From Candidatus Woesearchaeota archaeon (GTDB lineage Archaea > Nanobdellota > Nanobdellia > Woesearchaeales > UBA12501), in assembly GCA_014729495.1 (NCBI GenBank), contig WJJV01000048.1, positions 1-37,271 of the forward strand: a stretch of 37,271 nucleotides of DNA, given 5' to 3'. This document shows, piece by piece, positions 1 through 37,203 of the stretch. Every line of letters begins with the position of its first letter. Position 1 is the stretch's first letter. The notes under the pieces are model-generated. The model was not told where the DNA came from. It saw nothing but the letters and a program-made list of their open reading frames with translations, and made no database searches. The translations under genes and the position numbers were made by a program.

Positions 1-2
1 AC

Positions 3-3000
3 TTCAGCACTGATTATAACTTCTTTGTCACAAGCAAGCAGGTAAGGGGCGTCACAACAGACAAGCTTGAGTTCAATGTAGCAGTAGAGGAGATTGAGAA
101 AATAGAGGCTCCAGAAGAACCTGCGCCGGCCGACCCTCCAACCATCGCAGGTCCAATGACAATAGTCATTGATCCAGGCCATGGAGCTCATGATTCAGGC
201 ACGCAAGGAGGGAGCCGTAATTATCCGTACCTCAAGCCTTATGAAGAGAACAAGCAGAAGATCATTGAATCATTTGTAGCAGAGGCCAACAAGAATATGT
301 ATATAGTTGAGGTTCTTGCTGAAAAGCTGAGATCTCAGGGCCATACTGTCCATCTCATAAGATACGGCCAGGAGTTCTATTGCGATTCCTGTGTTAGAGG
401 CAGGCAGGCAAGGACACTGTGGGCTGCCTCAAAGAAAGCAGACCTTTTCCTGAGTATACATAATAATGCAGCTGGTACTGGAAGAAGGATGAAGGCGCAG
501 AGAATGGTTCTTCTTCAGCTTGAGAGACATTGTGAAGGGGTAGAAGAATTCTGTGCTGAGTCAAAGAAACTAGCTGACTCTATCTCATCTACTTTGCAGA
601 AACATACAGGTGAAGATTACAGGGTTCTCAGGAGGCCTTTGTCAGGCACAAGCTCGTCACCAATAGGTTATTTCACTTCAAAGGCCGTGAAAGGGGCAAG
701 AGATGCTAACATGCCTTACTGCCTCATGGAGATTGCTGCAATAAACGACCCTGCATTGAATGATCCTGGCAAGATAGATGCCATAGCTTCTGCGATTGTA
801 CAGGGAATCCATGACTATGCAGGCCCTGCAAACAATCTTGTGGCTGCCACAACATCAGGTGCAGAGCTTGACTGCCACTACTGCAATGATGGAAAAGAGA
901 ATGTAAAGGATATATTCGGAGAAGAGGCATACCAGGAATGCATCAATAATGGGAAATCATGCTGCAATCTGAAATGCCCCCAGGACTCTGTTGTACTGGC
1001 TAACCTTCCTGAGTACAGGAACCAGCACAGAGATTATCAGGATCTTGGAACATGCGGAGAAAGCTCAAGAGGAGTGAGCGGATCAGGCTGCGGTCCTGTA
1101 TCAGCCCACATGGCTTTTGCAGAAGCAGGCAAGGATATATCTGTGAAATCACTGTTCTGCGCAGGAGAAGAGGATGAGATATACACTCCAGGAGACGGCA
1201 CTCTTGTGGAGGACATGGATAGGATTGCTAAAAAGCACCTGCCTGATTCAAGACTCTATCAGAAGTTTGATTTTGAGAAGATATCAATAGAGATAAAGGC
1301 AGGGAATCCTGTTATTCTTGACATTAAGCAGAAAGACAGCGGAGACAGGGAGCCAGAAGACTGGCAGAACTGGCGAGGCAGGAGCAACAGCCTCAATGAA
1401 AGATGCTACCAGACACAGGGGCACTGGGTCAATGTTGTCGGAGTTTCAGATGATCATATAATTGTGAATGATCCTGCAACAGGAGCAACATCATGCGACA
1501 GGGACAGGACAGTCGGAGAGAGGCAGGTATGGTCAAAGGAATTCGTCAATGACATATCATATTATGGTGTTGCTCTTGTTCCAGAGAGAAGTGATCAGCC
1601 TGCTGCTGGAGCAGGCACTGGCTCAAGAGAATACTACATCAATGATGGAGTGATAACAGAAGAGGATTTCATGAGCAAGCCAAGCAGAGAATCCCTGAAA
1701 TGGTGTTCTGCTTCAAGCTCTAACCAAATATTCAGATATGAAGATATCCAGAATAGATGCCCTCCATCAGAAAGGACTACAACATACAGTGGTGATGAAG
1801 GAGGTCTGATACCTGAGCAGGGAATCAATAAGAAGCTCATTGAACTGCTCAACCAGGCCCAGGAGAGATTCGGAGTCACAATAATAATAGAATCTGGAGT
1901 CAGGCCTTACAAGCATAACCTCTGGAGCTGGGCAAGGCTTGAAGCTGACAAAGCAGAAAAACTTGAACAGGACAATGATTTCAGGTTCTCATCTCCAGAC
2001 AGAGTAAGCCTCAACAACTGGCACATGTGCGGAGCAGCAGCAGACTTCAGGGTTAAGGAATGGCCCGCAAGCGCTGACATAGGCAAGTACAGGGAGATGG
2101 CCAGGTGGCTTGAGAGCACTTACTCTCCAGGATACTATCATGCGTATGAAACTGGAGAGGGAAGGGACCCTGACAATTACTATGAGAGCCCTTACATACA
2201 TGCTGATCCTTTTGGAAGATCAGACTGCACTGGAAAGAATGTAGAATATGTAAAGGTTGAGGTTCCTGTTGAGACAACGCTCACAACTGAACATAGTCCA
2301 GAGGAGGGGGTTGCTGAAGGGCAGATTGACATACTTGATGTTGACATCAGCAATGAGCCCCTTGTTCCTATACCTGAATACAAGGGAAAGAGCCTCTGCA
2401 AGCCAGGCATTGACTGCAGGCTCAAGAAGTCAGCAGCAGATGCAGTTATTAGGCTGGCAGAGGAGTTCGAGAACCAGGGATGCGAGCTATACATAAAGGA
2501 TGCTTACAGGTCAGAGAAAGCATACAGGTATCTTTACAACAAGTACAAGGCAAGAGGAGGGGTGTGCAGTCCAAGAGGAGGCAGCTTTGCCCACTGCCCT
2601 CATGCAATTGGAGCTGCTATAGACATTGAGTGGAGGAATTGCATGCCTTATGAGAAAAGGATAAAGGCTGCGTGCAAGGCAGGCTGGGCAAACTGGCAGT
2701 CAGAAGGATGGCATTTTGAGTTCGGATCAGATCACTGGAAAGAATCATTATCCTCAGGATACTGCCAGTGGCCTGAGGTATCAACAGGAGCAATCGGCGG
2801 AGGGGCATTCAAAGGCCACAAGGCTGTAACAACAGAGGATGCAGGGCTCAATCTTGGGCCTCAGAAACCCCCTGAAGAGTTCGGGACAAGCGAGGAGTGC
2901 AGGCAGTATGGACCAAATGAACCCATGCCTTTCAGGACATCTAGTCCATGCTTATCAGTTGGGCTGATGCAGGACATCCTTGAGGAAGCAGGGTCTCCTG

Positions 3001-6000
3001 TCGCAGAGCATGCCCAGGCATTCTATGATTATGGAATTGAGTATGGCATTGATCCTGCGATAGCTCTTGCATTCTTCAAGAAAGAATCGCAGTTTGGAAA
3101 AACAAAAAGATGCAATATCCCAGATATAGCAAAGAACCCTGGCAATATAAGGTATACTCCAGAAAGGTGTAGGGGTATAGAAAATACTTATTTCTATGAT
3201 AGCACTGACCTTGGCTGCCATCTAATAAATATTGAAGCAATGAGAAAGGGAGCAGAGCTTATCAAATCAAATCCAGAAAGGACTCCGCATGGAGATGGAA
3301 TATCCCGGCCTTACTGCAAGTATGACTCCTGGGAAGAAGGCATTGAAGCATGGTACAAAGCAATCAAAAACAAACCATACATTGCATCTGGAAGAACAAC
3401 TGTAGAGCAGATTACTGAGTTATATGCAGATGATCCCATTGCTTATCAGAAGTTTGTGAAGAAGTGGGTTAATGAGTGGAGGGCAGAACAGATAAGGAGA
3501 TTCGGAGGCACACCAACAGACAGAAGCCAGCTTCCTCCAGGAGAGGGAGTCATAGGCACAAATAAGATAATACTTGATCAGGCACTGCTAATGGAGAATA
3601 TTGCCTATAACTGGGCTGGAAGGTATGGGTATGCATTTGGTCCTACAGACTACAAGATGAACTGGGGCATTGACTGCATAGGGCTTCAGTATGTCACCCT
3701 GCGCCAGCTTGGAGCAATAGATGGCAGTGTAGAGTACAAGAAGATATTTGAGTGGGGAAAGACGGTTGTTGAGGAGATACCAGGCAAAAGAATCAGCGAC
3801 CAGGAGATCAGGGACAGCAATTTTGATGCTCTTATGCCCGGAGACCTTGTGTTTGTCAGGAATCAGGGGCATACTGGGATATATTTTGGAGAAAAGGACG
3901 GCAAGCATATGTTCCTGAATGCAAAAGGAAAAAAGAATCTAAAAAGCGGATGCAGTGACAACTGCTGCAAACCTGACGCAAAATTCAAGGTAACACTGAC
4001 TCCGATGGAGGATTATCTGAGCAAAGGAAAGATGGAGGCCTTGAGGGTTGATCCTTCACTTATTAAAGACAGGCCATACGCCTCTGAGATTCCTGCAGAT
4101 ACCCCTACAGATTATGTTTGCGAAGGTCCGCACTCAGTGCCGGATTACAGCAGGTATGGGGGCATAAGAAGAGAGTCAGAGTACTCTGACGGGCAGGAGA
4201 TCATAAAGGTGATCAGATCTATTGGAACTTACAGTGTTGAGCCTTCATTCACAATAGACACAGATTATGACTTTGGAGAGTATGAGATAATAGAGCAGCA
4301 GGTAAAAGGCCACGGAAGCGTAAAAGGAATGATTGACATGGTTGCTGAGTGCGAGGCAGGAGGTAAGGATGTAGAAGCATGTGTCTCTGATGCTGTCAAG
4401 GCAGTAAATGAGAGAGCAGAGATGAAAAACAGAGGTCTTGAGATGTACAATGGCCCGTGCAATCCAAAAGAGAATCTTTGGAGTGATCTTGTTGAAGGCA
4501 TGGGAGACTGCATAGATGCTGACCAGACCAACTGCTATTGCGAGATAAGGCTTGAGAAGGCAGAGCAGGCATCATTATTGTCAGCAAGCACCGCAAACAT
4601 AAAAGTAGAGACAGATGGAGACACAAAGATATCTTTGGAAGAATCCAATATCAAGAGATATTATACATTCAGCAAGAAAGTGAACTCAAAGGTTGCTCCT
4701 GCCTCAACAGATTCCGGTTCATCATCCAGATCAGCAGAAGATAACGGAATCAGCTATAAAAAAGAGAATCTCAATAGTGACCGGATCCATACAATAGATG
4801 TGGATCCAGCAGGATTTAATGTAGAGGTGGCTACTTCAAAGACAGGCAATACAAGAGAGGAGATTGACAAGATAATGGGATCTGATGATATTGCTGCCAT
4901 AAATGCAGGATTCTTTGACACCGGAGACGGCAAACCTGTCTCGATAATTGTTGAGGATGGAGCAAGGATATCAGAAAACCAGCCTCTCTCCAGCAGGATG
5001 CCTGATGATTCAGCTGATAAGGGATTCAATGGATGTTTTATTGTAAAGGAATCAGGAAGCACCAGGACATATGATATTGTGGATATAAGCGAGTTCAATC
5101 CAGATGAAGTCCAGTATGCTATCTGCTCTCCCTGGCTGGTGAAGGATCACAACTACAACTTTCCTTGCGAAACATTCAATGAAAAAAGAACCCTAGAAGG
5201 CCGCAGCCCATATTGTCCTGAGTCCAACAGAAGGTCTGTTCTTGCAATAAAGGATGATGGGACAGTCAGCCTCATTATAGCTAGGAATTATAATATCCCT
5301 GAGATAGGACAACACATAGCAAAGGATTACAAGGAGGCAATAGCTCTTGATGGAGGAGGCTCTGTCTCTATGGAATATCATCATGACGGAACAGATGTAT
5401 CTATAGGATGGGATTCAGGAAACACCCAGAGAAAGGTCTCCAGCGCAATTGTTGTGAAACCAAAACCTGATGCTGCGACAGGGAGTTCAGGAACAGGCTC
5501 AGCAGAACAATCAATAGATGGCGCAGATATATCAGGGAATATGAAACATGGAGATGTTTATTATCTGAGAAAAGCAGGGGCCAGCATCTATCTGCTTGGC
5601 AGCAAGCCAAGCACAAGAGAATGCAATACTGAGAAGCGCACATACAAGTTCTGCGTGGAATCTGATAAGAATATCCTGTACTATGATGAACAGCTGGCCA
5701 AGACAGTCAAGAGGAATGTGCAGTACAAGTTCGCTCTTGAATTTCCTGACAAGATGCCTCCTCCTCCAGTATCCGGCCTTAAGGCTTCTGACAAGCTCAA
5801 AGCAGAGTCATCTGTTGTGCTTGAATGGGATGCTCCAAAGCAGGGCCAGTCAGTGATAGATGATCTCAGCCATTATCTTGTTTACTGCACTGACACAGAG
5901 TTTGTCAAGCAGGGCGGAAGCGTGATAACTGCTGGCATAACCAGCCCGCAGAAAGTGGCTTCAGAGGCAGGCAAGGAACATCTTAATGTGCAGTCAGGAT

Positions 6001-7436
6001 ACTGCGCTGGCTCGCAGATATCTGACGGGCAGGAATACACTTTTGCTGTTGTTCCTGTTGACATCAGCGGAAATCAGGGGCCTGCAAAGGAGATAAAGGC
6101 AACATCAGTGGATGATCTTGCACCAGGGCCTGTCATCATTACCCTTGGTTCTGAGACATACACAATGGAAGGCCAGGCAACAGGCCTGCCAGCAGACTCA
6201 GTATCACTAAGCTGGCAGAAGCCTGCTAACAATGAGGATGGAGAATCAGAAGCTGATGACCTTGAATCCTATTGGGCATTCTTCTCAGAGAACACTCTCA
6301 GCCTGGAATCCTGCTCTGCGCCAGCTTGCGCTGAGGCAGCAGCAGGAACAGAATCAAATCAGTACACAGGTCTTGACCCTGCAAAGACATACAATTTTGC
6401 AGTCATCGCAGTTGACAGTGCAGGCAACCACATCACAACTGAGGAATTCACTGCACCAGAGCAGTGGAATGGTCTTGATATATCAGAATGCTACCTGGAC
6501 AGCCAGGGAACTGCAACCTGCAGGGGAGTCACAGCAGAAACCGCTGCGCAGGGTCCAAGCCCTTCAGGGCCTGACACTCTTGAGCAAGAGCTTTCTTCAG
6601 AGCTGGAAAACGCTGATCTGTCAGGTGCTCAGCAGCCTGCTGCAGGAGAAGATGGCATTGTTGATATGGCCATAGTGCTTGATGATGCAGGAGGTAGCTT
6701 CAGCAGCGACAAAAGAGGCATAGATATATTGAGATCAGCAGGAAGCCCTGCAATAACATTCGCAGTTTTCCCAAGAGCAGGTTCAACAGAGCAGACAGCT
6801 CAATATCTTGCATCAAACTATCCTCAGGACAGCTTTGACATGATAATACACCAGCCAATGGAGTACCTGGGAGAGGAGGTAGGCAGGGCAGGGCCTGCTG
6901 ACTGCTCAAAAACCTATACAGACAGGACAAGGATATGCGATGGCGATACTCCAGAGCAGGCCAAAACAATATTAAGAAGGCATATTGAGGATTTCCAGGG
7001 ATTCACCAATTTTGTAGGATACAACAACCATCAGGGAAGCAAGACAACAGGCAACAGGGAGCTGATGACAGGCCTGGCAGAACTAATCAAGAGCAGTTAT
7101 CCTGACCTTATTGTCATGGACAGCGCAACAGGAACCTCCCAGTATCCTCATATAGCATATGAGGTAATGCAGGACAAAGGAGTGAGATCATACATTAATG
7201 TGCAGTTCCTTGACAATACTGAGTCAGTGAGCTATACAAAAGCAAGGCTTCAGGATCTTGAAAGCAAGGCTTTAGAGAAAGGTTTTGCTGCGGGCATAGG
7301 GCATGTTGTAAGGTCCACAACTCCACAGGCAATAGCTGAATACCTAAGTGACTTCTCAAAACAAGGAGATCATTATGTAAAGCAGGTGGGTGACAGGAAA
7401 GTTAGGCTTGTTACATTGTCCGAGCTTCCGAAATAA
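3..7436 (+). CDS. Giant multidomain cell-wall (peptidoglycan) hydrolase, 5'-truncated: Amidase_3, C39-like, M15A-like, M15B/VanY-like, GH73-like, NlpC/P60, NAGPA, 2x FN3, divergent polysaccharide deacetylase
   Basis: The frame of ORF 156..7436 has no stop back to position 3 (FSTDYNFFVTSKQVRG...), so the start lies outside the window. Motifs: IDPGHG/SIHNNA/LMEI; Q..GCGP..GHW..NDP; SGVR..HMCGAAAD..YIHAD; AYRS..HAIGAAID..EGWH; ALAFFKKESQFG..NPGNI..YDSWEEGI; GIDCIG..PGDLVF..GHTGIY; AAINAGFFD..LDGGGS; AIVLDDAG..HQPME..NNHQGS..GIGH. Confidence 0.92.
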   Translation, partial: FSTDYNFFVTSKQVRGVTTDKLEFNVAVEEIEKIEAPEEPAPADPPTIAGPMTIVIDPGHGAHDSGTQGGSRNYPYLKPYEENKQKIIESFVAEANKNMYIVEVLAEKLRSQGHTVHLIRYGQEFYCDSCVRGRQARTLWAASKKADLFLSIHNNAAGTGRRMKAQRMVLLQLERHCEGVEEFCAESKKLADSISSTLQKHTGEDYRVLRRPLSGTSSSPIGYFTSKAVKGARDANMPYCLMEIAAINDPALNDPGKIDAIASAIVQGIHDYAGPANNLVAATTSGAELDCHYCNDGKENVKDIFGEEAYQECINNGKSCCNLKCPQDSVVLANLPEYRNQHRDYQDLGTCGESSRGVSGSGCGPVSAHMAFAEAGKDISVKSLFCAGEEDEIYTPGDGTLVEDMDRIAKKHLPDSRLYQKFDFEKISIEIKAGNPVILDIKQKDSGDREPEDWQNWRGRSNSLNERCYQTQGHWVNVVGVSDDHIIVNDPATGATSCDRDRTVGERQVWSKEFVNDISYYGVALVPERSDQPAAGAGTGSREYYINDGVITEEDFMSKPSRESLKWCSASSSNQIFRYEDIQNRCPPSERTTTYSGDEGGLIPEQGINKKLIELLNQAQERFGVTIIIESGVRPYKHNLWSWARLEADKAEKLEQDNDFRFSSPDRVSLNNWHMCGAAADFRVKEWPASADIGKYREMARWLESTYSPGYYHAYETGEGRDPDNYYESPYIHADPFGRSDCTGKNVEYVKVEVPVETTLTTEHSPEEGVAEGQIDILDVDISNEPLVPIPEYKGKSLCKPGIDCRLKKSAADAVIRLAEEFENQGCELYIKDAYRSEKAYRYLYNKYKARGGVCSPRGGSFAHCPHAIGAAIDIEWRNCMPYEKRIKAACKAGWANWQSEGWHFEFGSDHWKESLSSGYCQWPEVSTGAIGGGAFKGHKAVTTEDAGLNLGPQKPPEEFGTSEECRQYGPNEPMPFRTSSPCLSVGLMQDILEEAGSPVAEHAQAFYDYGIEYGIDPAIALAFFKKESQFGKTKRCNIPDIAKNPGNIRYTPERCRGIENTYFYDSTDLGCHLINIEAMRKGAELIKSNPERTPHGDGISRPYCKYDSWEEGIEAWYKAIKNKPYIASGRTTVEQITELYADDPIAYQKFVKKWVNEWRAEQIRRFGGTPTDRSQLPPGEGVIGTNKIILDQALLMENIAYNWAGRYGYAFGPTDYKMNWGIDCIGLQYVTLRQLGAIDGSVEYKKIFEWGKTVVEEIPGKRISDQEIRDSNFDALMPGDLVFVRNQGHTGIYFGEKDGKHMFLNAKGKKNLKSGCSDNCCKPDAKFKVTLTPMEDYLSKGKMEALRVDPSLIKDRPYASEIPADTPTDYVCEGPHSVPDYSRYGGIRRESEYSDGQEIIKVIRSIGTYSVEPSFTIDTDYDFGEYEIIEQQVKGHGSVKGMIDMVAECEAGGKDVEACVSDAVKAVNERAEMKNRGLEMYNGPCNPKENLWSDLVEGMGDCIDADQTNCYCEIRLEKAEQASLLSASTANIKVETDGDTKISLEESNIKRYYTFSKKVNSKVAPASTDSGSSSRSAEDNGISYKKENLNSDRIHTIDVDPAGFNVEVATSKTGNTREEIDKIMGSDDIAAINAGFFDTGDGKPVSIIVEDGARISENQPLSSRMPDDSADKGFNGCFIVKESGSTRTYDIVDISEFNPDEVQYAICSPWLVKDHNYNFPCETFNEKRTLEGRSPYCPESNRRSVLAIKDDGTVSLIIARNYNIPEIGQHIAKDYKEAIALDGGGSVSMEYHHDGTDVSIGWDSGNTQRKVSSAIVVKPKPDAATGSSGTGSAEQSIDGADISGNMKHGDVYYLRKAGASIYLLGSKPSTRECNTEKRTYKFCVESDKNILYYDEQLAKTVKRNVQYKFALEFPDKMPPPPVSGLKASDKLKAESSVVLEWDAPKQGQSVIDDLSHYLVYCTDTEFVKQGGSVITAGITSPQKVASEAGKEHLNVQSGYCAGSQISDGQEYTFAVVPVDISGNQGPAKEIKATSVDDLAPGPVIITLGSETYTMEGQATGLPADSVSLSWQKPANNEDGESEADDLESYWAFFSENTLSLESCSAPACAEAAAGTESNQYTGLDPAKTYNFAVIAVDSAGNHITTEEFTAPEQWNGLDISECYLDSQGTATCRGVTAETAAQGPSPSGPDTLEQELSSELENADLSGAQQPAAGEDGIVDMAIVLDDAGGSFSSDKRGIDILRSAGSPAITFAVFPRAGSTEQTAQYLASNYPQDSFDMIIHQPMEYLGEEVGRAGPADCSKTYTDRTRICDGDTPEQAKTILRRHIEDFQGFTNFVGYNNHQGSKTTGNRELMTGLAELIKSSYPDLIVMDSATGTSQYPHIAYEVMQDKGVRSYINVQFLDNTESVSYTKARLQDLESKALEKGFAAGIGHVVRSTTPQAIAEYLSDFSKQGDHYVKQVGDRKVRLVTLSELPK
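156..815 (+). other. Domain: N-acetylmuramoyl-L-alanine amidase (Amidase_3)
   Basis: IVIDPGHG (Zn His), EANKN (Zn Glu), LFLSIHNNA (Zn His), CLMEI (catalytic Glu). Boundaries approximate. Confidence 0.9.
1005..1580 (+). other. Domain: C39-like cysteine peptidase (Peptidase_C39_2 type)
   Basis: PEYRNQ (oxyanion Gln), SGCGPVSAHM (Cys), GHWVNVVG (His), IIVNDP (Asp). Boundaries approximate. Confidence 0.85.
1824..2210 (+). other. Domain: peptidase M15A-like Zn peptidase
   Basis: KLIELLNQAQERFG..IIIESGVRP..HN, HxxxxxxD (HMCGAAAD), YIHAD. Boundaries approximate. Confidence 0.8.
2418..2725 (+). other. Domain: peptidase M15B/C (VanY/VanX-like) Zn peptidase
   Basis: LYIKDAYRS, HAIGAAIDI (HxxxxxxD), SEGWHFEF (ExxH). 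Boundaries approximate. Confidence 0.87.
2960..3480 (+). other. Domain: glucosaminidase (GH73-like)/lysozyme-like fold
   Basis: YGIEYGIDPAIALAFFKKESQFG (catalytic Glu in ES), NPGNIR, KYDSWEEGIEAW, GRTTVEQITELYA. Boundaries approximate. Confidence 0.8.
3560..4050 (+). other. Domain: NlpC/P60 cysteine peptidase
   Basis: YNWAG, GIDCIGL (Cys), LMPGDLVF, GHTGIYFG (His), FLNA (third triad residue Asn). Boundaries approximate. Confidence 0.87.
4785..5460 (+). other. Domain: phosphodiester glycosidase (NAGPA/DUF2233)
   Basis: IAAINAGFFD, RRSVLAIKDDG, AIALDGGGSVSM, RKVSSAIVV. Boundaries approximate. Confidence 0.87.
5757..6430 (+). other. Domains: two fibronectin type III repeats
   Basis: PPPVSGL..SVVLEWDAP..YLVY..YTFAVVPVDISGN and PGPV..VSLSWQKP..TYNFAVIAVDSAGN. 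Confidence 0.8.
6666..7433 (+). other. Domain: divergent polysaccharide deacetylase (Polysacc_deac_2/YibQ-like)
   Basis: MAIVLDDAG, ITFAVFP, IIHQPME, GYNNHQGSKTT, VMDS, FLDN, AAGIGH. Confidence 0.88.
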
Positions 7437-7499: not shown

Positions 7500-8663
7500 A
7501 TCGACATAAAAGTACCACATGATGTTGTAAGGGATAAGATAAAAGATCATTCTAACATAACAGATGAAGAGCTGGAAAGTAAGATCAAGGCAAAGATTGA
7601 CAAGCTTTCTGGACTCATATCAAAGGAAGGGGCTGCTCATATAATAGCCAATGAGCTGGGTATAAAGCTCTATGATCAGGCATCAGGCAGGCTCAAGATA
7701 AAGAACATCCTTGCAGGTATGAGGAATGTTGAGATTGCTGCAAAGGTCCAGCAGGTGTTTGAGGTAAGGGAATTCCAGACAGAGACCAGATCAGGAAAGG
7801 TAGGATCATTCATAGTAGGGGATGAGACCGGCACTATCAGGGTTGTCCTGTGGGGATCACAGGCAGATAAGCTCTCCCAGCTCAAAGAGAATGATATAAT
7901 CAAGGTGCAGTCAGCCTATGTGAAAGAGAATAGGGGAAGGAAAGAGGTGCATCTCGGAGACCAGGGTTCACTTGATATCAATCCAGAAGGAGAGAGCATA
8001 GGCGAGGTCAAGAAGATAAACTCAACAAGGAAGAGCATAAATGAGCTTGCTGAGAACATGCAGGATGTTGAAGTCCTGGGCACTGTTGTCCAGGTATATG
8101 ATATAAAGTTCTTTGATGTGTGCCCTGAATGCGGAAAGAAGACTCTTCCAAAAGAGGGCTCTGCAATATGCTCACAGCATGGATCTGTGACCTCTACATC
8201 ATCTTATGTCTTCAATGCTATCATAGATGATGGAACAGGAAACATCAGAGCAGCTTTCTTCAGGAAGCAGGTAGAGAATCTGCTGAAGAAGAGCCAGGAT
8301 GAGATTGTTGAGTTCAGGGATTCTGCAGAGAAATTCGAGCAAGTAAAGCACGACCTGTTAGGAAAGCAGATAAAGATTGTAGGAAGGGTCAACAAGAACA
8401 TGATGTTTGACAGGATAGAGCTTATAGCCCAGCTTGTGTTCCCTGACCCTGATCCAGAAGAGGAGATTAAGAGGCTGCAGTCAGAAAAGCCTGCTGAAAG
8501 CAGTAATCAGCAGGGTTCTGTCCAGGAGAGCACAGATACAGGCAGTGTTTCATCTCAGCCAGCTCCAGAAACTGAGCAGTCCCAGACAGATAATGTGCAG
8601 CAGAGTCCAGTATCAGAGAGTTCTGAAAAACCAATGTTTAATATAGATAAACCTGATTCTTGA
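7500..8663 (+). CDS. rpa: Replication protein A (N-terminal helical domain, OB folds, Zn finger); start probably non-canonical
   Basis: OB-fold motifs VGDETGTIRVVLWG and IIDDGTGNIRAAFF; Zn finger CPEC..CSQH. In-frame upstream extension 7500-7718 encodes the conserved-looking KLSGLISKEGAAHIIANELG. An in-frame TAG sits at 7485 and there is no ATG/GTG/TTG before 7719. Confidence 0.85.
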   Translation: MDIKVPHDVVRDKIKDHSNITDEELESKIKAKIDKLSGLISKEGAAHIIANELGIKLYDQASGRLKIKNILAGMRNVEIAAKVQQVFEVREFQTETRSGKVGSFIVGDETGTIRVVLWGSQADKLSQLKENDIIKVQSAYVKENRGRKEVHLGDQGSLDINPEGESIGEVKKINSTRKSINELAENMQDVEVLGTVVQVYDIKFFDVCPECGKKTLPKEGSAICSQHGSVTSTSSYVFNAIIDDGTGNIRAAFFRKQVENLLKKSQDEIVEFRDSAEKFEQVKHDLLGKQIKIVGRVNKNMMFDRIELIAQLVFPDPDPEEEIKRLQSEKPAESSNQQGSVQESTDTGSVSSQPAPETEQSQTDNVQQSPVSESSEKPMFNIDKPDS

Positions 8664-8670
8664 AATTAAG

Positions 8671-9135
8671 ATGATGTTCAGGACTCATATTGCAATAGGG
8701 TTTCTTGCAGGACTGCTTCTTATACAGGCATGGAATCCTCAGAACCAGATACTGTTCATGTTTCTGATACTCCTGGGATCAGCCCTGCCTGATATAGACC
8801 ATCCTGATTCCAAGATAGGAAGTAAAGTAAAGGCTGTATCATTCCTATTTGAGCATAGGGGATTCTTCCACAGTCTTTTTGCAGCATTGATGATATTTCT
8901 TTTGCTTGCTTATTATGTCAGTGGCCTGACCTATGGAATATACATAGCAGCTGTGGCTATTGGATACCTGCTTCACATGCTCGCTGATTCTTTGACAAGA
9001 GAGGGAATAATGCCCTTCCATCCAATATCAAGATTCAGGCTCAGGGGTCCTATGAGGACTGGCAGGATGGTGGAATATATAATATTCATCTGCTTCATAG
9101 CTCTGGGCATATGGAAAATGTTCACATTCCACTGA
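8671..9135 (+). CDS. YdjM-family membrane-bound metal-dependent hydrolase
   Basis: RTH, LPDIDH, HRGFFHS and HMLADSLT..G motifs; several TM helices. Confidence 0.85.
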   Translation: MMFRTHIAIGFLAGLLLIQAWNPQNQILFMFLILLGSALPDIDHPDSKIGSKVKAVSFLFEHRGFFHSLFAALMIFLLLAYYVSGLTYGIYIAAVAIGYLLHMLADSLTREGIMPFHPISRFRLRGPMRTGRMVEYIIFICFIALGIWKMFTFH

Positions 9136-33783: not shown

Positions 33784-36700
33784 ATGAGTAGTAAAATCAA
33801 ACTTGTTTATATTGTATTATTCTTGATTCTTCTTGTCATAAGTATGAAGTCAGCTTTTGCTCTGCAGGAGGATTTCAATGCTTATGCTTCTCAGAAGACC
33901 CTTTATGCATGTTCCTGTTCTGATCTTGAGAATTCAATAACTATAGAGAACACTGGTGATGTGACCAGTGTATATGAGATAAGCCAGTCAGGCTCAGCAC
34001 TGCCCTACTCAGCTTTCAGTCCTTCCAGGCTGACTCTAAAGCCAGGAGAAAGCAGGAGAATACCTAATTTCATCAGCGCTGAATGCGGAACAGAAGGGAA
34101 TTTTGCCCTCATAACAAGCATAACCACAGAATTCGGCCTTTCAAAGCAGATGGAACAGGCAGTTGATGTGAGGAAGTGCATCAATACTGATGTCATCCAG
34201 ACAGAACAGCCAAGCGATGTCTGCCCTTGCAAACCTGTAAGATACACATTCGTTGTAAAGAATACAGGCGATTTTGTAGAGACATATAATCTGAATGTTA
34301 CACCTTATGCTGAATACATAAGCATAAGCGAAGAAGTGCTTGTTCTAGGTCCAGGAAAAAGTGAAGAGATATATGTTTTTGTAGCAACACCCTGCGGGAT
34401 ATATGGCGAGCTTGATTTTGTTCTCAGGGTTGAAGCACAGACCAATGAGATGATCGCGGAGCTTCCTTTCAGTCTCAATATAAATCCCTGCTATGATTAC
34501 TCAATAAGTTCAGCAGACAGCTACTCTGTCTGCAAGGACATAAGGAATTCCGTCCCTGTCACAATAACCAACAATGCTGATGTGGCCAATAGTTATTTCC
34601 TTAACACCAACAGCCAATGGGCATTCTTTGATTCAGGTGTGGTCAGCCTGGCAAAGAAGCAGGCAACAAATGTGAATGTAACAGTCTACCCTTCAGCTGT
34701 GCCAGAGGGATTATATAATATAACCTTCAATGCTGTTTCAGAGAGAGGCCAGCTTCCTGTAGACAAGTCAGTCTCAGTAAGTGTTGAGAACTGCTATTCA
34801 ATACATCTAACTACAGACCCTGCGCCTCAGCTTGTGAGCTGCGAACAGTATATAGCTAACGGCCATGCCAGTAATGACGGCACAAGAGCAAGCAGATACT
34901 CATTCTCTCTTTTCGGAGAAGAGTGGGCAAGCCTCGGAAAGCAGGAAGCTGTTGTCAATCCAGGAACCACAGAGGATGTGCCTGTAATGCTTAATGTTCC
35001 GTGCAATGTAACAGGAGAGCACGAGTTTGTGCTGAGAGCAAATGTTACCAATTTCCCTGAGAAAGTGGTGCAGGATTCATTCCTTGTGGGAGTCACTTCA
35101 ATAGAGGATGCCTACAAGATAGAGGTAAACAGCATAGAAGACGATCTTGAAGTGGATTATGCAGGCGGAACTCACGAGATAACCTTGACAAATCTTGGCA
35201 TAAGGAACAGCACATATGACATACTGTTTCAGGGAAACCATTCCTGGATAGGGCTTGACAGGACAAGGATAATGATACCTGCAGGAGGAACAGAATCAGT
35301 CAACATGATCTCTACTCCAACAAACGAGACTCCTGAAGGAACATATGACATTTCACTCACAGCAATACCCTTGGGCAAGGAAATAGGATATGAGAGAGAA
35401 TTCAGCCTGAAGCTCAGGGAGAAGACATTATGGGAGAAATTTGTAGACAGCTGGCCTTACCTGCTTGCAGGAGTGCTGCTTCTGGTGCTGCTGACACTTG
35501 CACTTCTTCTCTTGAACAAGAGAAGAAGCAAAGAGGATGAAAAGTTCTGGCAGGAGGTTGAAGGAGAACCATCAAGGATCATCCCAGAGGAGAAAGAAGA
35601 CAAGCTTCTTGAAGTTGACAATAAGGAAAGGAAATGGCTGAAATGGCTTATCATAATAGGATTGCTGCTGCTCATACTTGGAGCATTAGGGGCAGGAGTA
35701 TACTTCCTCACATCATATCTGGCATCAGATAGCACCAACATGACAGATCAGGCATCAAACCAGACAGGCATGCCTTATCAGGATTCAGAATGGAACCAGA
35801 CACAGGAGATGAATCAGACACAAGAGCCAGGACTGCTATCCTCAGTCTGGAACTGGATTTTCGGAGATGAAGAGACAGAGCAGGAGGATTCTGCAGAAGA
35901 CTCTGCTGAGAGTAAGGATGATTCACAGGGACTGCTGGAAAGCGCAACAATATATGTGAACAGGACAGGACTTGAAGGAGAAGGAGATATCATAGAGATA
36001 AAGGATACAGAGAATATCACAATCCCCCTTACAATACAGAACAACTATGAGCCCAACACATTCAGGATAAGAGTGAATGAGGATGTTGACTGGATAAGCG
36101 TTGATCAGGAGAATATTGAGATAGCTCCTGATGATAAAGGGACCGTGAACATAATAGTTACACCTGATGAGAATGTTGAGCAGGGAAACTACAGGATAAA
36201 CATCAAGATTGATGTTGAAGGAAAGCAGAAACCAATATCAGAGGAGATTGTTCTGAAGGTAAGCAAGGATGAACCATTCTATATAAAATACCTGTGGTAC
36301 CTTATCGCTGCTCTGATTGTTCTTGCAGTGCTGGCGGGCATAGCAGGAGCAGGAGAATGGAAGCAAAGGAGGGATGCCGCAGCTCTTGAGCCTGTTGCTG
36401 AAGAGAAAAAGAAGCCAAAGGAAAAGAAGAGAGCCATGAAAGAAGAGGAGGAAACAGAAGGCAGGCCATGGCTCAAGTATGCCATTCTTGGAATAATCAT
36501 AATTCTTGTGCTGGCAGGCATTGTGTATGCAGGATTGTATGCGTTCAGCTCAGTAGGGTCATTGTATGGGGAAAAAGGATCAGGCAATGAGACAGCAAAC
36601 CAGACAGGCGTGCAGACAGATGATGCAGAAAGCAATGTTTCAGATGAGACAGGAGATATAGAAGAACAGATGGCAGAGGAAATTGAAGATTTCCAGGAGC

Positions 36701-37203
36701 CTGAGATTGAGGCAGAAGAGCCTGAGATAAAATATGAGGATGTATTTGTGCAGAAAGGTGTTGAGACCGTAATCCCGCTTAAGATAAGAAATGCTAATGA
36801 GACAGCAACATTCAAGATAAAGGTCAATGAAGATATAGAATGGATAACTGTGGACAGCAACGAGGTTCAGATATCCCCAAATGAGAATGCGACAGTCAAC
36901 CTTCTTGCATCTCCAGACAGTGATGTGGAGGATGGGGACTATATGGTATCTGTGAATGTAGAAGTGAGCGGAGAGGAAAAGCAGTTCACACAGGGATTCA
37001 TACTCAATGTGGGAAAGAGCAGGTTCTCAGCATTCTGGTCCTATCTGCTTTATGCTCTTGCAGGAATTATCCTGCTGGCCATAGCAATTGGTGTCCTGAA
37101 CAGGATGGAAAAGGGAAAAGAACCTGAAGAAGAAAAAGAGAAGGAAACTAAGGATAAGAAGCAGGCAAAGGGAAAGAAGAAGACAGGCATAAAGCTCAAG
37201 TGA
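33784..37203 (+). CDS. Large cell-surface glycoprotein with Ig-like (CARDB/NPCBM-associated-type) repeats and five TM helices
   Basis: Signal peptide, repeated I(E/T)NTG..Y..L.PG beta-sandwich units, many N-x-S/T sequons. TMs near 35458, 35644, 36289, 36478, 37039; Lys-rich tail. Confidence 0.85.
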   Translation: MSSKIKLVYIVLFLILLVISMKSAFALQEDFNAYASQKTLYACSCSDLENSITIENTGDVTSVYEISQSGSALPYSAFSPSRLTLKPGESRRIPNFISAECGTEGNFALITSITTEFGLSKQMEQAVDVRKCINTDVIQTEQPSDVCPCKPVRYTFVVKNTGDFVETYNLNVTPYAEYISISEEVLVLGPGKSEEIYVFVATPCGIYGELDFVLRVEAQTNEMIAELPFSLNINPCYDYSISSADSYSVCKDIRNSVPVTITNNADVANSYFLNTNSQWAFFDSGVVSLAKKQATNVNVTVYPSAVPEGLYNITFNAVSERGQLPVDKSVSVSVENCYSIHLTTDPAPQLVSCEQYIANGHASNDGTRASRYSFSLFGEEWASLGKQEAVVNPGTTEDVPVMLNVPCNVTGEHEFVLRANVTNFPEKVVQDSFLVGVTSIEDAYKIEVNSIEDDLEVDYAGGTHEITLTNLGIRNSTYDILFQGNHSWIGLDRTRIMIPAGGTESVNMISTPTNETPEGTYDISLTAIPLGKEIGYEREFSLKLREKTLWEKFVDSWPYLLAGVLLLVLLTLALLLLNKRRSKEDEKFWQEVEGEPSRIIPEEKEDKLLEVDNKERKWLKWLIIIGLLLLILGALGAGVYFLTSYLASDSTNMTDQASNQTGMPYQDSEWNQTQEMNQTQEPGLLSSVWNWIFGDEETEQEDSAEDSAESKDDSQGLLESATIYVNRTGLEGEGDIIEIKDTENITIPLTIQNNYEPNTFRIRVNEDVDWISVDQENIEIAPDDKGTVNIIVTPDENVEQGNYRINIKIDVEGKQKPISEEIVLKVSKDEPFYIKYLWYLIAALIVLAVLAGIAGAGEWKQRRDAAALEPVAEEKKKPKEKKRAMKEEEETEGRPWLKYAILGIIIILVLAGIVYAGLYAFSSVGSLYGEKGSGNETANQTGVQTDDAESNVSDETGDIEEQMAEEIEDFQEPEIEAEEPEIKYEDVFVQKGVETVIPLKIRNANETATFKIKVNEDIEWITVDSNEVQISPNENATVNLLASPDSDVEDGDYMVSVNVEVSGEEKQFTQGFILNVGKSRFSAFWSYLLYALAGIILLAIAIGVLNRMEKGKEPEEEKEKETKDKKQAKGKKKTGIKLK

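Follow-up and report, generated by a model that had tools for sequence, protein, structure and literature searches.

Type IV pilins can be modular: in the bacterial proteins described by Raynaud et al. (2021; PMC8179133), who studied PilB and PilC of Streptococcus sanguinis and surveyed bacteria carrying IPR012902, a class-III leader and a small pilin module display a functional module, the architectures are diverse and a position at the tip has been proposed. The same paper, in the parts considered here, describes for bacteria both modular pilins of this kind and the insertion into the pilin sheet that is seen in GspK. Large murein-like lytic-transglycosylase proteins are known in Woesearchaeota and Pacearchaeota (PMC8204110, 2021; PMC9723730), and modular peptidoglycan hydrolases have been described from archaea, being prominent and diverse in Nanoarchaeota (PLoS Biol 2025; PMC12352652). 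Here we describe a giant gene at the left end of a 37,271-nucleotide stretch of DNA from a Candidatus Woesearchaeota archaeon (the window, which is one entire contig, G000:C18); it probably encodes a DPANN surface protein of ~2,620 residues, in which wall hydrolases have been inserted at two fixed points of a pilin-like scaffold.

Three non-catalytic segments of the window protein (P0001) are interrupted by enzymes: residues 1-36, ~1403-1563 and ~1853-1916. An earlier note on this DNA, made from its letters alone, had claimed as much: all three segments lie where that note placed them (segment 1 at nucleotides 3-110), the Cys patterns that it quoted are present in segments 2 and 3, and the translation contains all three of its low-complexity linkers. 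A block of six hydrolase domains separates segments 1 and 2 (junction 1), and a NAGPA phosphodiester glycosidase separates segments 2 and 3 (junction 2). None of the three segments matched a Pfam or NCBIfam family at E ≤ 0.1. The extent given in the note (3..5756) was right for the segments and too short for the gene: the open reading frame (3..7436, + strand, 2477 residues open, stop codon at 7434-7436) continues through two fn3 domains and a Polysacc_deac_2 domain, and its 5' end is truncated by the start of the contig, so that the true gene start lies beyond the window, on contig C109.

The last 124 bases of C109 are identical to the first 124 bases of the window (a 40-aa overlap at 100% identity), and C109 supplies the missing N-terminus. 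The first ~143 residues of the protein are encoded there (L001:5125-5673): a short basic leader, Ser-Gln, a hydrophobic stretch of ~23 residues forming the helix, and a domain of ~150 aa whose end is segment 1, so that segment 1 closes a pilin-like region of ~180 aa. The join is backed by P0004, an independent NCBI record, because P0004 is collinear across it, with 73% identity to the N-terminal piece on C109 and 68% identity to the window protein across 1572 collinear residues.

Using residues 1380-1930 as query, we retrieved P0002 (1855 aa) and P0003 (1452 aa), in which segments 2 and 3 run on uninterrupted as a Cys-rich module of 234-237 aa; aligned with them (alignment A1), the window protein has ~280 extra residues between two short strands of the module. 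A profile of segments 2 and 3 searched against 1.84 billion representative sequences matched 216 proteins at E ≤ 0.001, of which 46 reached E ≤ 1e-10 and 18 reached E ≤ 1e-30, a conservation far beyond chance. Of 401 genomes sampled from the phylum, 32 contain the module, mostly in one copy each. For a census we took the 150 listed profile matches together with the window protein (n = 151) and built hidden Markov models (HMMs) for the segments and the N-terminal domain. The segment 2 HMM matched 146 and the segment 3 HMM 147 of the 151; both segments were present in 143, segment 2 alone in three, segment 3 alone in four and neither in one (P0140), and the seven proteins with one segment include two clear fragments, P0004 and P0028. 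Between segments 2 and 3 the median gap is 65 aa; 138 of the 143 have a gap no longer than 134 aa, leaving five members with a gap of at least 218 aa: the window protein, P0084, P0086, P0103 and P0146.

The N-terminal domain occurs in 60 of the 151 proteins, and its distance to segment 2 is bimodal: 11-58 aa in 26 proteins, 164-1365 aa in 34, and nothing in between. Homologs with all three segments contiguous therefore exist, e.g., P0044 (395 aa) and P0065 (368 aa), as the earlier note had expected of a scaffold. Nothing suggests that the module arose by duplication of the N-terminal domain (hhalign of the two profiles, probability 0.13).

The contents of junction 1 vary among the relatives. 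Segment 2 opens with a near-invariant G-x-Y-S-x-x-P-S-F strand, which closes this junction, and 33 of the 34 long inserts before it match one or more families of peptidoglycan hydrolases at E ≤ 1e-4 (the 34th, in P0082, has a weak M23 match only). Twelve Pfam families are found there: SLT, M23, NlpC/P60, Glucosaminidase, Amidase_2, Amidase_3, VanY, M15_3, YkuD, Polysacc_deac_1, C39_2 and NAGPA. SLT is present in 22 of the 34 relatives with a long insert; the window protein has no SLT match at E ≤ 0.1. Three relatives illustrate how the enzymes are exchanged: P0004 (68% identity) has one extra domain in the NAGPA loop, P0002 (52-60%) lacks the M15_3/VanY pair and the deacetylase and carries NAGPA at junction 1, and P0003 (40-56%), from the same-genus genome G229, has only C39-like, NAGPA and SLT domains. 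In both P0002 and P0003 the NAGPA domain lies 3' of the C39-like domain. For comparison, topoisomerase VI B is 81% identical between the host and G229.

The same junction appears in the members without the N-terminal domain. They begin with a hydrophobic helix and an I-T-G-x-A strand, which MAFFT pairs with a conserved strand of the N-terminal domain (Gly in at least 90% of 47 sequences). Of 69 such members with an N-terminal hydrophobic window, 46 have the I-T-G motif. In 27 of these, segment 2 begins no more than 45 aa later; in the other 19 it comes after 186-300 aa (1188 in one), and several of the 19 hold SLT or 3D domains in the gap. Junction 1 is thus the same in the two forms, located between the I-T-G-equivalent strand region and the G-x-Y-S-x-x-P-S-F strand.

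At junction 2, P0004 is informative: it matches the window protein domain by domain through the end of segment 2; beyond an S/T linker in the same position it has a second M15_3-like domain (38% identical to residues 551-628 of the window protein), after which its contig ends. P0028, an N-terminally truncated fragment, consists of an M15_3-like domain, NAGPA, segment 3 and fn3, is collinear with the window protein at 62% identity over the last three, and overlaps the end of P0004 at 81% across 36 aa. In the lineage of P0004 and P0028 the loop thus most likely holds an M15_3-like domain as well as NAGPA. In a tree of nine NAGPA rows, the domains of P0001 and P0028 (junction 2) and those of P0002 and P0003 (junction 1) form one clade (support 100/99), and the NAGPA domains from proteins that lack the N-terminal domain fall outside it; the tree is midpoint-rooted and does not imply a direction of movement, and it fits a relocation within the family. 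Taken with the census, the contents of the two junctions support the note's expectation of different inserts at the same places on a conserved scaffold, with hydrolases of 12 families at junction 1 and the added M15_3-like domain of the P0004/P0028 lineage at junction 2.

Structure models suggest how three segments so far apart in the chain could form one unit. The model of P0044, a minimal member (47-row alignment), has a mean predicted local distance difference test score (pLDDT) of 86.6 and a predicted template modeling score (pTM) of 0.82, and consists of two long N-terminal helices (4-34, 40-76), a further helix, a small sheet and then the module. A comparison by VIA-align with 48,161 chains returned only weak rows, and 11 of the 50 best were pilins or pseudopilins aligned to residues ~37-178, at Z 3.2-5.3, values that, by the tool's own caution for Z under 8, may reflect merely a shared arrangement. 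The top match was GspK (PDB 3ci0 chain K; Z 5.3, root-mean-square deviation [rmsd] 3.1, 87 aligned, no sequence similarity), followed by PilV (4.8) and S. sanguinis PilB (4.7), with further rows for PilA5, EpsI/J, ComP, TTHA1218, PilA4, XcpV/W, Shewanella PilA and Francisella PilE. The alignment ranges of the pilins end at residues 173-181 and the first strands of segment 2 lie at 168-177, so most of these alignments include the first strands of segment 2. A model of the module only (P0002 residues 1351-1584, 31 rows; pLDDT 87.3, pTM 0.78) has its first 20 residues disordered (block means 46 and 62), and the equivalent stretch is ordered in P0044. Its structural matches were likewise weak (gp25-like 2ia7, Z 6.0; PilX, 5.4; TssE, 5.4; TTHA1218, 5.2); they are single-domain chains that span elements of both segments 2 and 3, as with PilX (rmsd 2.9 over 76 residues, model range 22..231).

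We also predicted a complex between the window protein's N-terminal domain without its membrane helix (residues 32-183, 21-row alignment) and a 514-aa piece comprising segment 2, NAGPA and segment 3 (31 rows in alignment A5, 30 by the tool's count). The pair scored 0.83 (runs of 0.85, 0.81 and 0.83), as against 0.01 for the best of three controls; the runs share at least 92% of contacts, and the partner pLDDT is at least 74. In the tool's calibration 116 of 157 solved complexes attained this score, as did 2 of 215 mismatched pairs, counts that hold only roughly here because our own alignments were used. The score expresses the confidence of the model and is not itself a measurement. No like complex has been solved, so memorisation is unlikely to explain the score. 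The predicted interface involves residues 43-81, 94-118 and 144-172 of the N-terminal chain, the last group being segment 1 (P0001 residues 1-29), and residues 2-33, 92-99 and 152 (segment 2) and 478-513 (segment 3) of the module chain, with no residues from the NAGPA insert. The three segments are thus predicted to assemble as one unit, and not as the independent, unrelated domains that the earlier note had named as the outcome that would undo its idea.

The N-terminus itself resembles that of a prepilin. In the alignment of the N-terminal domain (n = 61), two basic columns (K44/R11 and K56/R1) are followed by a third with A22/G21/S14, i.e., a small residue in 57 of 57 aligned sequences, then by ~23 hydrophobic columns and an invariant Gly (60/60). 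The motif [KR][KR][GAS] just 5' of a hydrophobic window occurs in 54 of 58 proteins with the domain, in 5 of 69 members without it, and in 48 of 387 open reading frames of at least 100 aa with a hydrophobic window in the host's own genome. The N-terminus encoded on C109 has the parts of a class-III leader: a basic leader, a small residue and a hydrophobic helix of ~20 residues. The genome also holds a prepilin peptidase (one Peptidase_A24 match above cut-off, on contig C94) and the ATPase and platform components of an assembly machinery (four T2SSE and four T2SSF matches, paired on contigs C27 and C98).

The giant gene is the last gene of a conserved operon of small leader-bearing proteins. 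Six further + strand reading frames lie upstream of it on C109; the five with complete N-termini each have a basic stretch and a hydrophobic helix, and the sixth is truncated 5'. The operon is collinear with genes in the genomes G229, G197 and G164, and in G229 at least 13 such leader-bearing genes stand on one contig, two of them of 93-94 aa; between the host and G229 the operon proteins are 27-45% identical. The earlier note had advised looking upstream for a pilin-like cluster, and a conserved cluster of proteins with class-III-like leaders is what is found there. All the checks advised in that note gave results in favour of its reading, which we regard as supported. In the host the operon is spread over four contigs (C12, 11028-17193; C90, 3-2960; then, after a gap, C109 and C18), which are collinear with the single G229 contig. 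The break between C109 and C18 falls in the linker directly after the N-terminal domain, and it could reflect strain variants with different payloads; no sequencing run is listed for positions 1-3000 of the window.

On this evidence the chain takes the following path. A class-III (prepilin-like) leader and hydrophobic helix lead into a small alpha/beta domain of predicted pilin-like arrangement; after the last strands of that domain the chain leaves the scaffold by a Pro/Glu linker, traverses six hydrolase domains (~1,350 aa) and is brought back by the G-x-Y-S-x-x-P-S-F strand, which is predicted to pack onto the N-terminal domain before the Cys-rich module of ~234 aa. A second excursion, in a loop between beta-strands of the module, bears NAGPA, and two fn3 domains and the deacetylase stand at the end. 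With two such excursions the scaffold is small and conserved, and the enzymes are nested inserts at two fixed points; among relatives the scaffold is retained, whereas enzymes have been swapped, gained, lost or relocated. The protein would be exported, processed in the manner of a pilin by the genome's single A24 peptidase, and displayed either at the cell surface or along a pilus-like fibre made of the neighbouring pilin-like gene products. There its amidase, peptidase, glycosidase, phosphodiesterase and deacetylase activities would face the peptidoglycan wall of a bacterium serving as host or prey. The producer is an archaeon without a peptidoglycan wall, so no immunity would be needed. In this picture the architecture and its conservation, the places of the inserts, the varying payloads and the synteny of the operon are direct observations; the way the three segments pack and the pilin-like fold come from models, and processing, a place on a filament and the target are proposals.

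Several observations weigh against this reading. At junction 2, the position of segment 3 after the M15_3-like insert has to be pieced together from the 36-aa overlap at 81%, since P0004 and P0028 are fragments of different records rather than one chain (a search for a full-length protein of the P0004 type returned only P0001-P0004). The 218-282-aa inserts between segments 2 and 3 in P0084, P0086, P0103 and P0146, which would be further payloads of this variable region, had no Pfam match at E ≤ 0.1, and their exact insert column is uncertain, since a two-sequence hmmalign profile failed to span large inserts and a three-sequence profile was biased by the window sequence. Three of the six block domains score under their Pfam cut-offs, and the regions concerned (M15_3-like and Glucosaminidase/NlpC-like) had no match at E ≤ 1 in a sequence search of the PDB. 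About 90 of the 151 family proteins have no N-terminal domain, and in G164 (L020:8843-12525) and G197 (L021:5532-13318), two genomes of the same family, the domain and the module are encoded by separate adjacent genes: the first combines the N-terminal domain with Amidase_2, or with Amidase_3 and M74, and the second combines a helix, an I-T-G strand, enzymes (SLT, or Metallophos and NAGPA) and the module. The scaffold is therefore not an obligatory single chain.

The pilin-like nature of the scaffold has points against it as well. The best structural matches of the modeled N-terminal domain and module (Z ≤ 5.3 and ≤ 6.0, respectively) lie below the tool's informative level, and Foldseek found nothing in the PDB at E ≤ 0.001 for either the P0044 or the module model. 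At E ≤ 1, the Pfam pilin families gave nothing beyond chance-level rows for the N-terminal domain and for the small proteins of the operon; for P0044 the single row was Flp_Fap (E 0.01, 16 bits, cut-off 32.2). In the window protein the residue before the hydrophobic stretch is Ser; Gly or Ala is commoner than Ser at this position of class-III leaders. The pilin-like character proposed in the earlier note is suggested by the leader motif and by weak fold matches, and we regard the pilin assignment as moderately supported.

The most specific form of our reading would make the protein a wall-breaching tip or minor subunit of a type-IV-pilus-like fibre, with socket loops in the sheet and in the module where entire enzyme domains are inserted, duplicated and moved, lineages that re-arm one fibre according to the wall chemistry of their bacterial hosts, and, in some lineages, scaffold halves from separate genes that reassemble outside the cell by strand complementation; we offer this as a tentative picture, possible and yet rather unlikely to be right in every part. 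Somewhat more doubtful still is that the same scaffold would form no filament at all: the leader and helix would serve as a membrane anchor or as part of a bindosome-like assembly, and the enzymes would act where cells touch. A size of ~2,620 aa is very large for a pilin, the Ser at position -1 and the weak fold matches outside any Pfam pilin family are in keeping with an anchor, and the sugar-binding proteins of Sulfolobus have class-III leaders and are not known to form pili. Moreover, the members without the N-terminal domain bear the same module and enzymes and rarely show the leader motif (the 5 of 69 above), so a pilin-type leader is dispensable for the role of the module. These points are countered by the position of the gene at the end of an operon of many small leader-bearing proteins, in which the 93-94-aa pair of G229 resembles fibre subunits, by the small residue that follows the two basic ones in 57 of 57 sequences, and by the A24 peptidase and ATPase/platform pairs in the genome.

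It is improbable that the protein is simply a beads-on-a-string hydrolase, in which the segments would be independent spacer or binding domains, the junctions ordinary linkers, and no scaffold would accept inserts. The two-gene arrangement in G164 and G197, the absence of the N-terminal domain from most family members, low-complexity linkers of a spacer type at all junctions, and the dissimilar profiles of domain and module could all be read in this way. However, segments 2 and 3 occur together in 143 of 151 proteins, and those with a single segment include the clear fragments P0004 and P0028; single PDB domains such as PilX align across both segments; the first strand of segment 2 is disordered in the model without the N-terminal domain and ordered with it in P0044; the predicted complex reaches 0.83, as against 0.01 for the best control, and all three segments contribute contacts; and the gap at junction 1 is either 11-58 or at least 164 aa. 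It is scarcely credible that the long frame is a chimera, put together during assembly from several hydrolase genes of a mixed population. The locus does lie in four contigs and the window starts inside the gene, but P0004, an independent record, follows it at 68% identity for 1572 residues, through the join and with all six block domains in the same order; P0028 does so at 62% across NAGPA, segment 3 and fn3; and P0002 is encoded as an identical 1855-aa protein by several contigs of several origins.

Within our preferred reading of a scaffold with nested hydrolases, the domains of the window protein are those listed in Table 1. The "six-enzyme block" of the earlier note holds for Amidase_3, Peptidase_C39_2 and VanY, which exceed their cut-offs, and is less firm for M15_3, Glucosaminidase and NlpC/P60, which do not; these three are stronger in P0004 (23.1, 27.6 and 24.1 bits, respectively). 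The C39_2-like region is 56% identical to P0003 across residues 284-537. The NAGPA match covers profile positions 4-168 of 169 and exceeds the curated cut-off. The fn3 pair 3' of the module is also kept in P0002, whose chain stops short of Polysacc_deac_2.

Table 1. Features of the giant gene and its surroundings. Positions are those of the window unless a locus on another contig is named; residue numbers are those of P0001; Pfam matches are given with the score in bits and the family's own cut-off, with which they were compared.
Feature	Position	Strand	Evidence
Last beta-strands of pilin-like N-terminal domain (segment 1)	3..104	+	N-terminal-domain HMM matches L001, E 2.4e-42
Acidic Pro-rich linker, opens junction 1	105..152	+	Reading of translation
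Amidase_3 (N-acetylmuramoyl-L-alanine amidase)	162..812, aa 54-270	+	PF01520, E 5.1e-18, 66.1 bits, cut-off 27
Peptidase_C39_2-like cysteine peptidase	1077..1478, aa 359-492	+	PF13529, E 1.5e-8, 35.8 bits, cut-off 24
M15_3-like (LAS-type) peptidase, weak	1680..2162, Pfam aa 606-639	+	PF08291, E 0.033, 14.7 bits, cut-off 23.2
VanY (D-Ala-D-Ala carboxypeptidase, M15)	2418..2732, aa 806-910	+	PF02557, E 2.5e-6, 27.7 bits, cut-off 25
Glucosaminidase-like, below cut-off	3015..3461, aa 1005-1153	+	PF01832, E 5.1e-4, 21.1 bits, cut-off 30.2
NlpC/P60-like endopeptidase, below cut-off	3630..3935, aa 1210-1311	+	PF00877, E 4.4e-4, 20.6 bits, cut-off 23
Segment 2, first part of Cys-rich module	4209..4691, aa ~1403-1563	+	Alignment A1, segment 2 HMM
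Junction 2 insert: S/T-rich linker, NAGPA, G/S-rich linker	4692..5558	+	Alignment A1: position empty in P0002, P0003
NAGPA phosphodiester glycosidase	4890-5456, aa 1630-1818	+	PF09992, E 4e-17, 63.4 bits, cut-off 25
Segment 3, last beta-strands of Cys-rich module	5559..5750, aa ~1853-1916	+	Alignment A1, segment 3 HMM
fn3-like domain 1	5793-6098 (pair: aa 1931-2145)	+	Pfam fn3, E 3.2e-7, 30.9 bits, cut-off 25
fn3-like domain 2	6180-6437	+	Pfam fn3_4, E 0.056, 13.8 bits, cut-off 27.1
Polysacc_deac_2 (divergent polysaccharide deacetylase), C-terminal	6672..7367, aa 2224-2455	+	PF04748, E 4.5e-25, 88.4 bits, cut-off 27.5
RPA-like and YdjM-like genes	7719-9135	+	
1139-aa protein with Ig-like-fold matches	33784-37203	+	Ig-like-fold matches (FixG_C, Cep192_D3, WxLIP_HBD, others)
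Operon protein with class-III-like leader (C109)	L001:2942-3994	+	Weak Amidase_3, E 1.6e-7

The genes around the giant gene agree with its archaeal origin. The genome is 1.35 Mb in size and 91% complete; RadA, topoisomerase VI A and B, RPA-like and RIO kinase genes flank the giant gene, which identifies the host as an archaeon, and those relatives of the giant protein that are named belong to Nanoarchaeia or Woesearchaeota. No paralog of the giant gene was found in the same genome at E ≤ 1e-3. The RPA-like and YdjM-like genes come right after it, and they follow the module gene in the same order in G197 and G164; the 3' border of the operon is therefore conserved. Scans found no tRNA in the window and no terminator 3' of the giant gene, and matches in a protein atlas were limited to archaeal clusters without names. 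Three further observations may be added. The operon protein on C109 with a weak Amidase_3 match is kept in G229 (34%) and in G197 (29%; Amidase_3 E 2.4e-10). The 1139-aa protein near the right end of the window combines several Ig-like matches with a hydrophobic block at its centre and may likewise be located at the surface. In P0013, P0014, P0016 and P0025, which lack the N-terminal domain, a Metallophos phosphoesterase precedes the module, and P0013, P0016 and P0025 also have NAGPA 3' of it; this hints at phosphodiester-linked wall polymers, e.g., teichoic acids, as targets.

Giant murein-hydrolase proteins have so far been the main genomic clue to the way in which DPANN archaea fasten onto other cells and open them. 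The locus described here gives that clue a defined architecture: a conserved scaffold with a pilin-type leader, two insertion points, and an operon of pilin-like partners, with a payload that varies even between genomes of one genus. The scaffold profile could be used as a marker for such loci and for predicting the type of host wall from the payload, and for the study of protein evolution the family offers a natural example of serial nested domain insertion into a pilin-like fold. A full-text literature search combining Woesearchae, pilin and peptidoglycan found no paper, subscription journals and supplements being outside its scope.

The comparison with polymorphic toxins, which the earlier note had drawn, is a loose one. 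As in those systems, conserved delivery or anchor parts are combined with catalytic parts that are rapidly exchanged, and the payload differs in close relatives. Unlike them, the giant protein has an internal and multiple payload instead of one C-terminal toxin; its gene is single-copy per genome, without paralogs; the RPA-like and YdjM-like genes downstream are housekeeping genes conserved in relatives and not immunity genes; and its targets would be wall polymers that are absent from the producer.

A second comparison is with modular pilins. In them, too, a leader and a small pilin-like module carry a displayed payload, and the structural matches of our N-terminal domain include PilB of S. 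sanguinis (Z 4.7). The differences are threefold: the chain of the giant protein is predicted to re-enter its pilin-like domain after ~1,350 aa; its payload is a series of wall hydrolases, and the words "hydrolase" and "peptidoglycan" are absent from the text of PMC8179133; and its family is archaeal and without a Pfam pilin match, whereas the survey in the parts of that paper considered here is bacterial. GspK, a minor pseudopilin of type II secretion and the top structural match of the N-terminal domain, bears an insert as well; that insert is one alpha-domain of unclear function, in contrast to the enzymes inserted in the giant protein, and the Z-score of the match lies below the informative level.

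The archaeal hydrolases of PMC12352652 resemble the giant protein in combining catalytic and other domains against bacterial walls. As described in the portions of that paper considered here, they mostly have one catalytic and one binding domain and a Sec/Tat signal, whereas the giant protein has eight catalytic-type domains nested in a scaffold and a class-III-like leader. The nearest counterparts are the giant murein hydrolases of DPANN, with which the protein shares its archaeal (Woesearchaeota-type) origin and very large size (~2,620 aa): those proteins reach ~3,000 aa, carry wall-degrading domains, and have been proposed to act in attachment to or attack on bacteria (PMC8204110, PMC9723730). 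Compared by description with fam00969 (PMC8204110), the window protein differs in its lack of an SLT match at E ≤ 0.1, and its relatives do have SLT. Neither paper, in the portions considered here, describes a conserved scaffold, fixed insertion points, a pilin-like leader or an operon; "pilin" and "pili" are absent from the text of PMC8204110, and "pili" and "pilus" from that of PMC9723730. The architecture of scaffold and nested inserts is real, and it is a variant of these known DPANN giant murein hydrolases.

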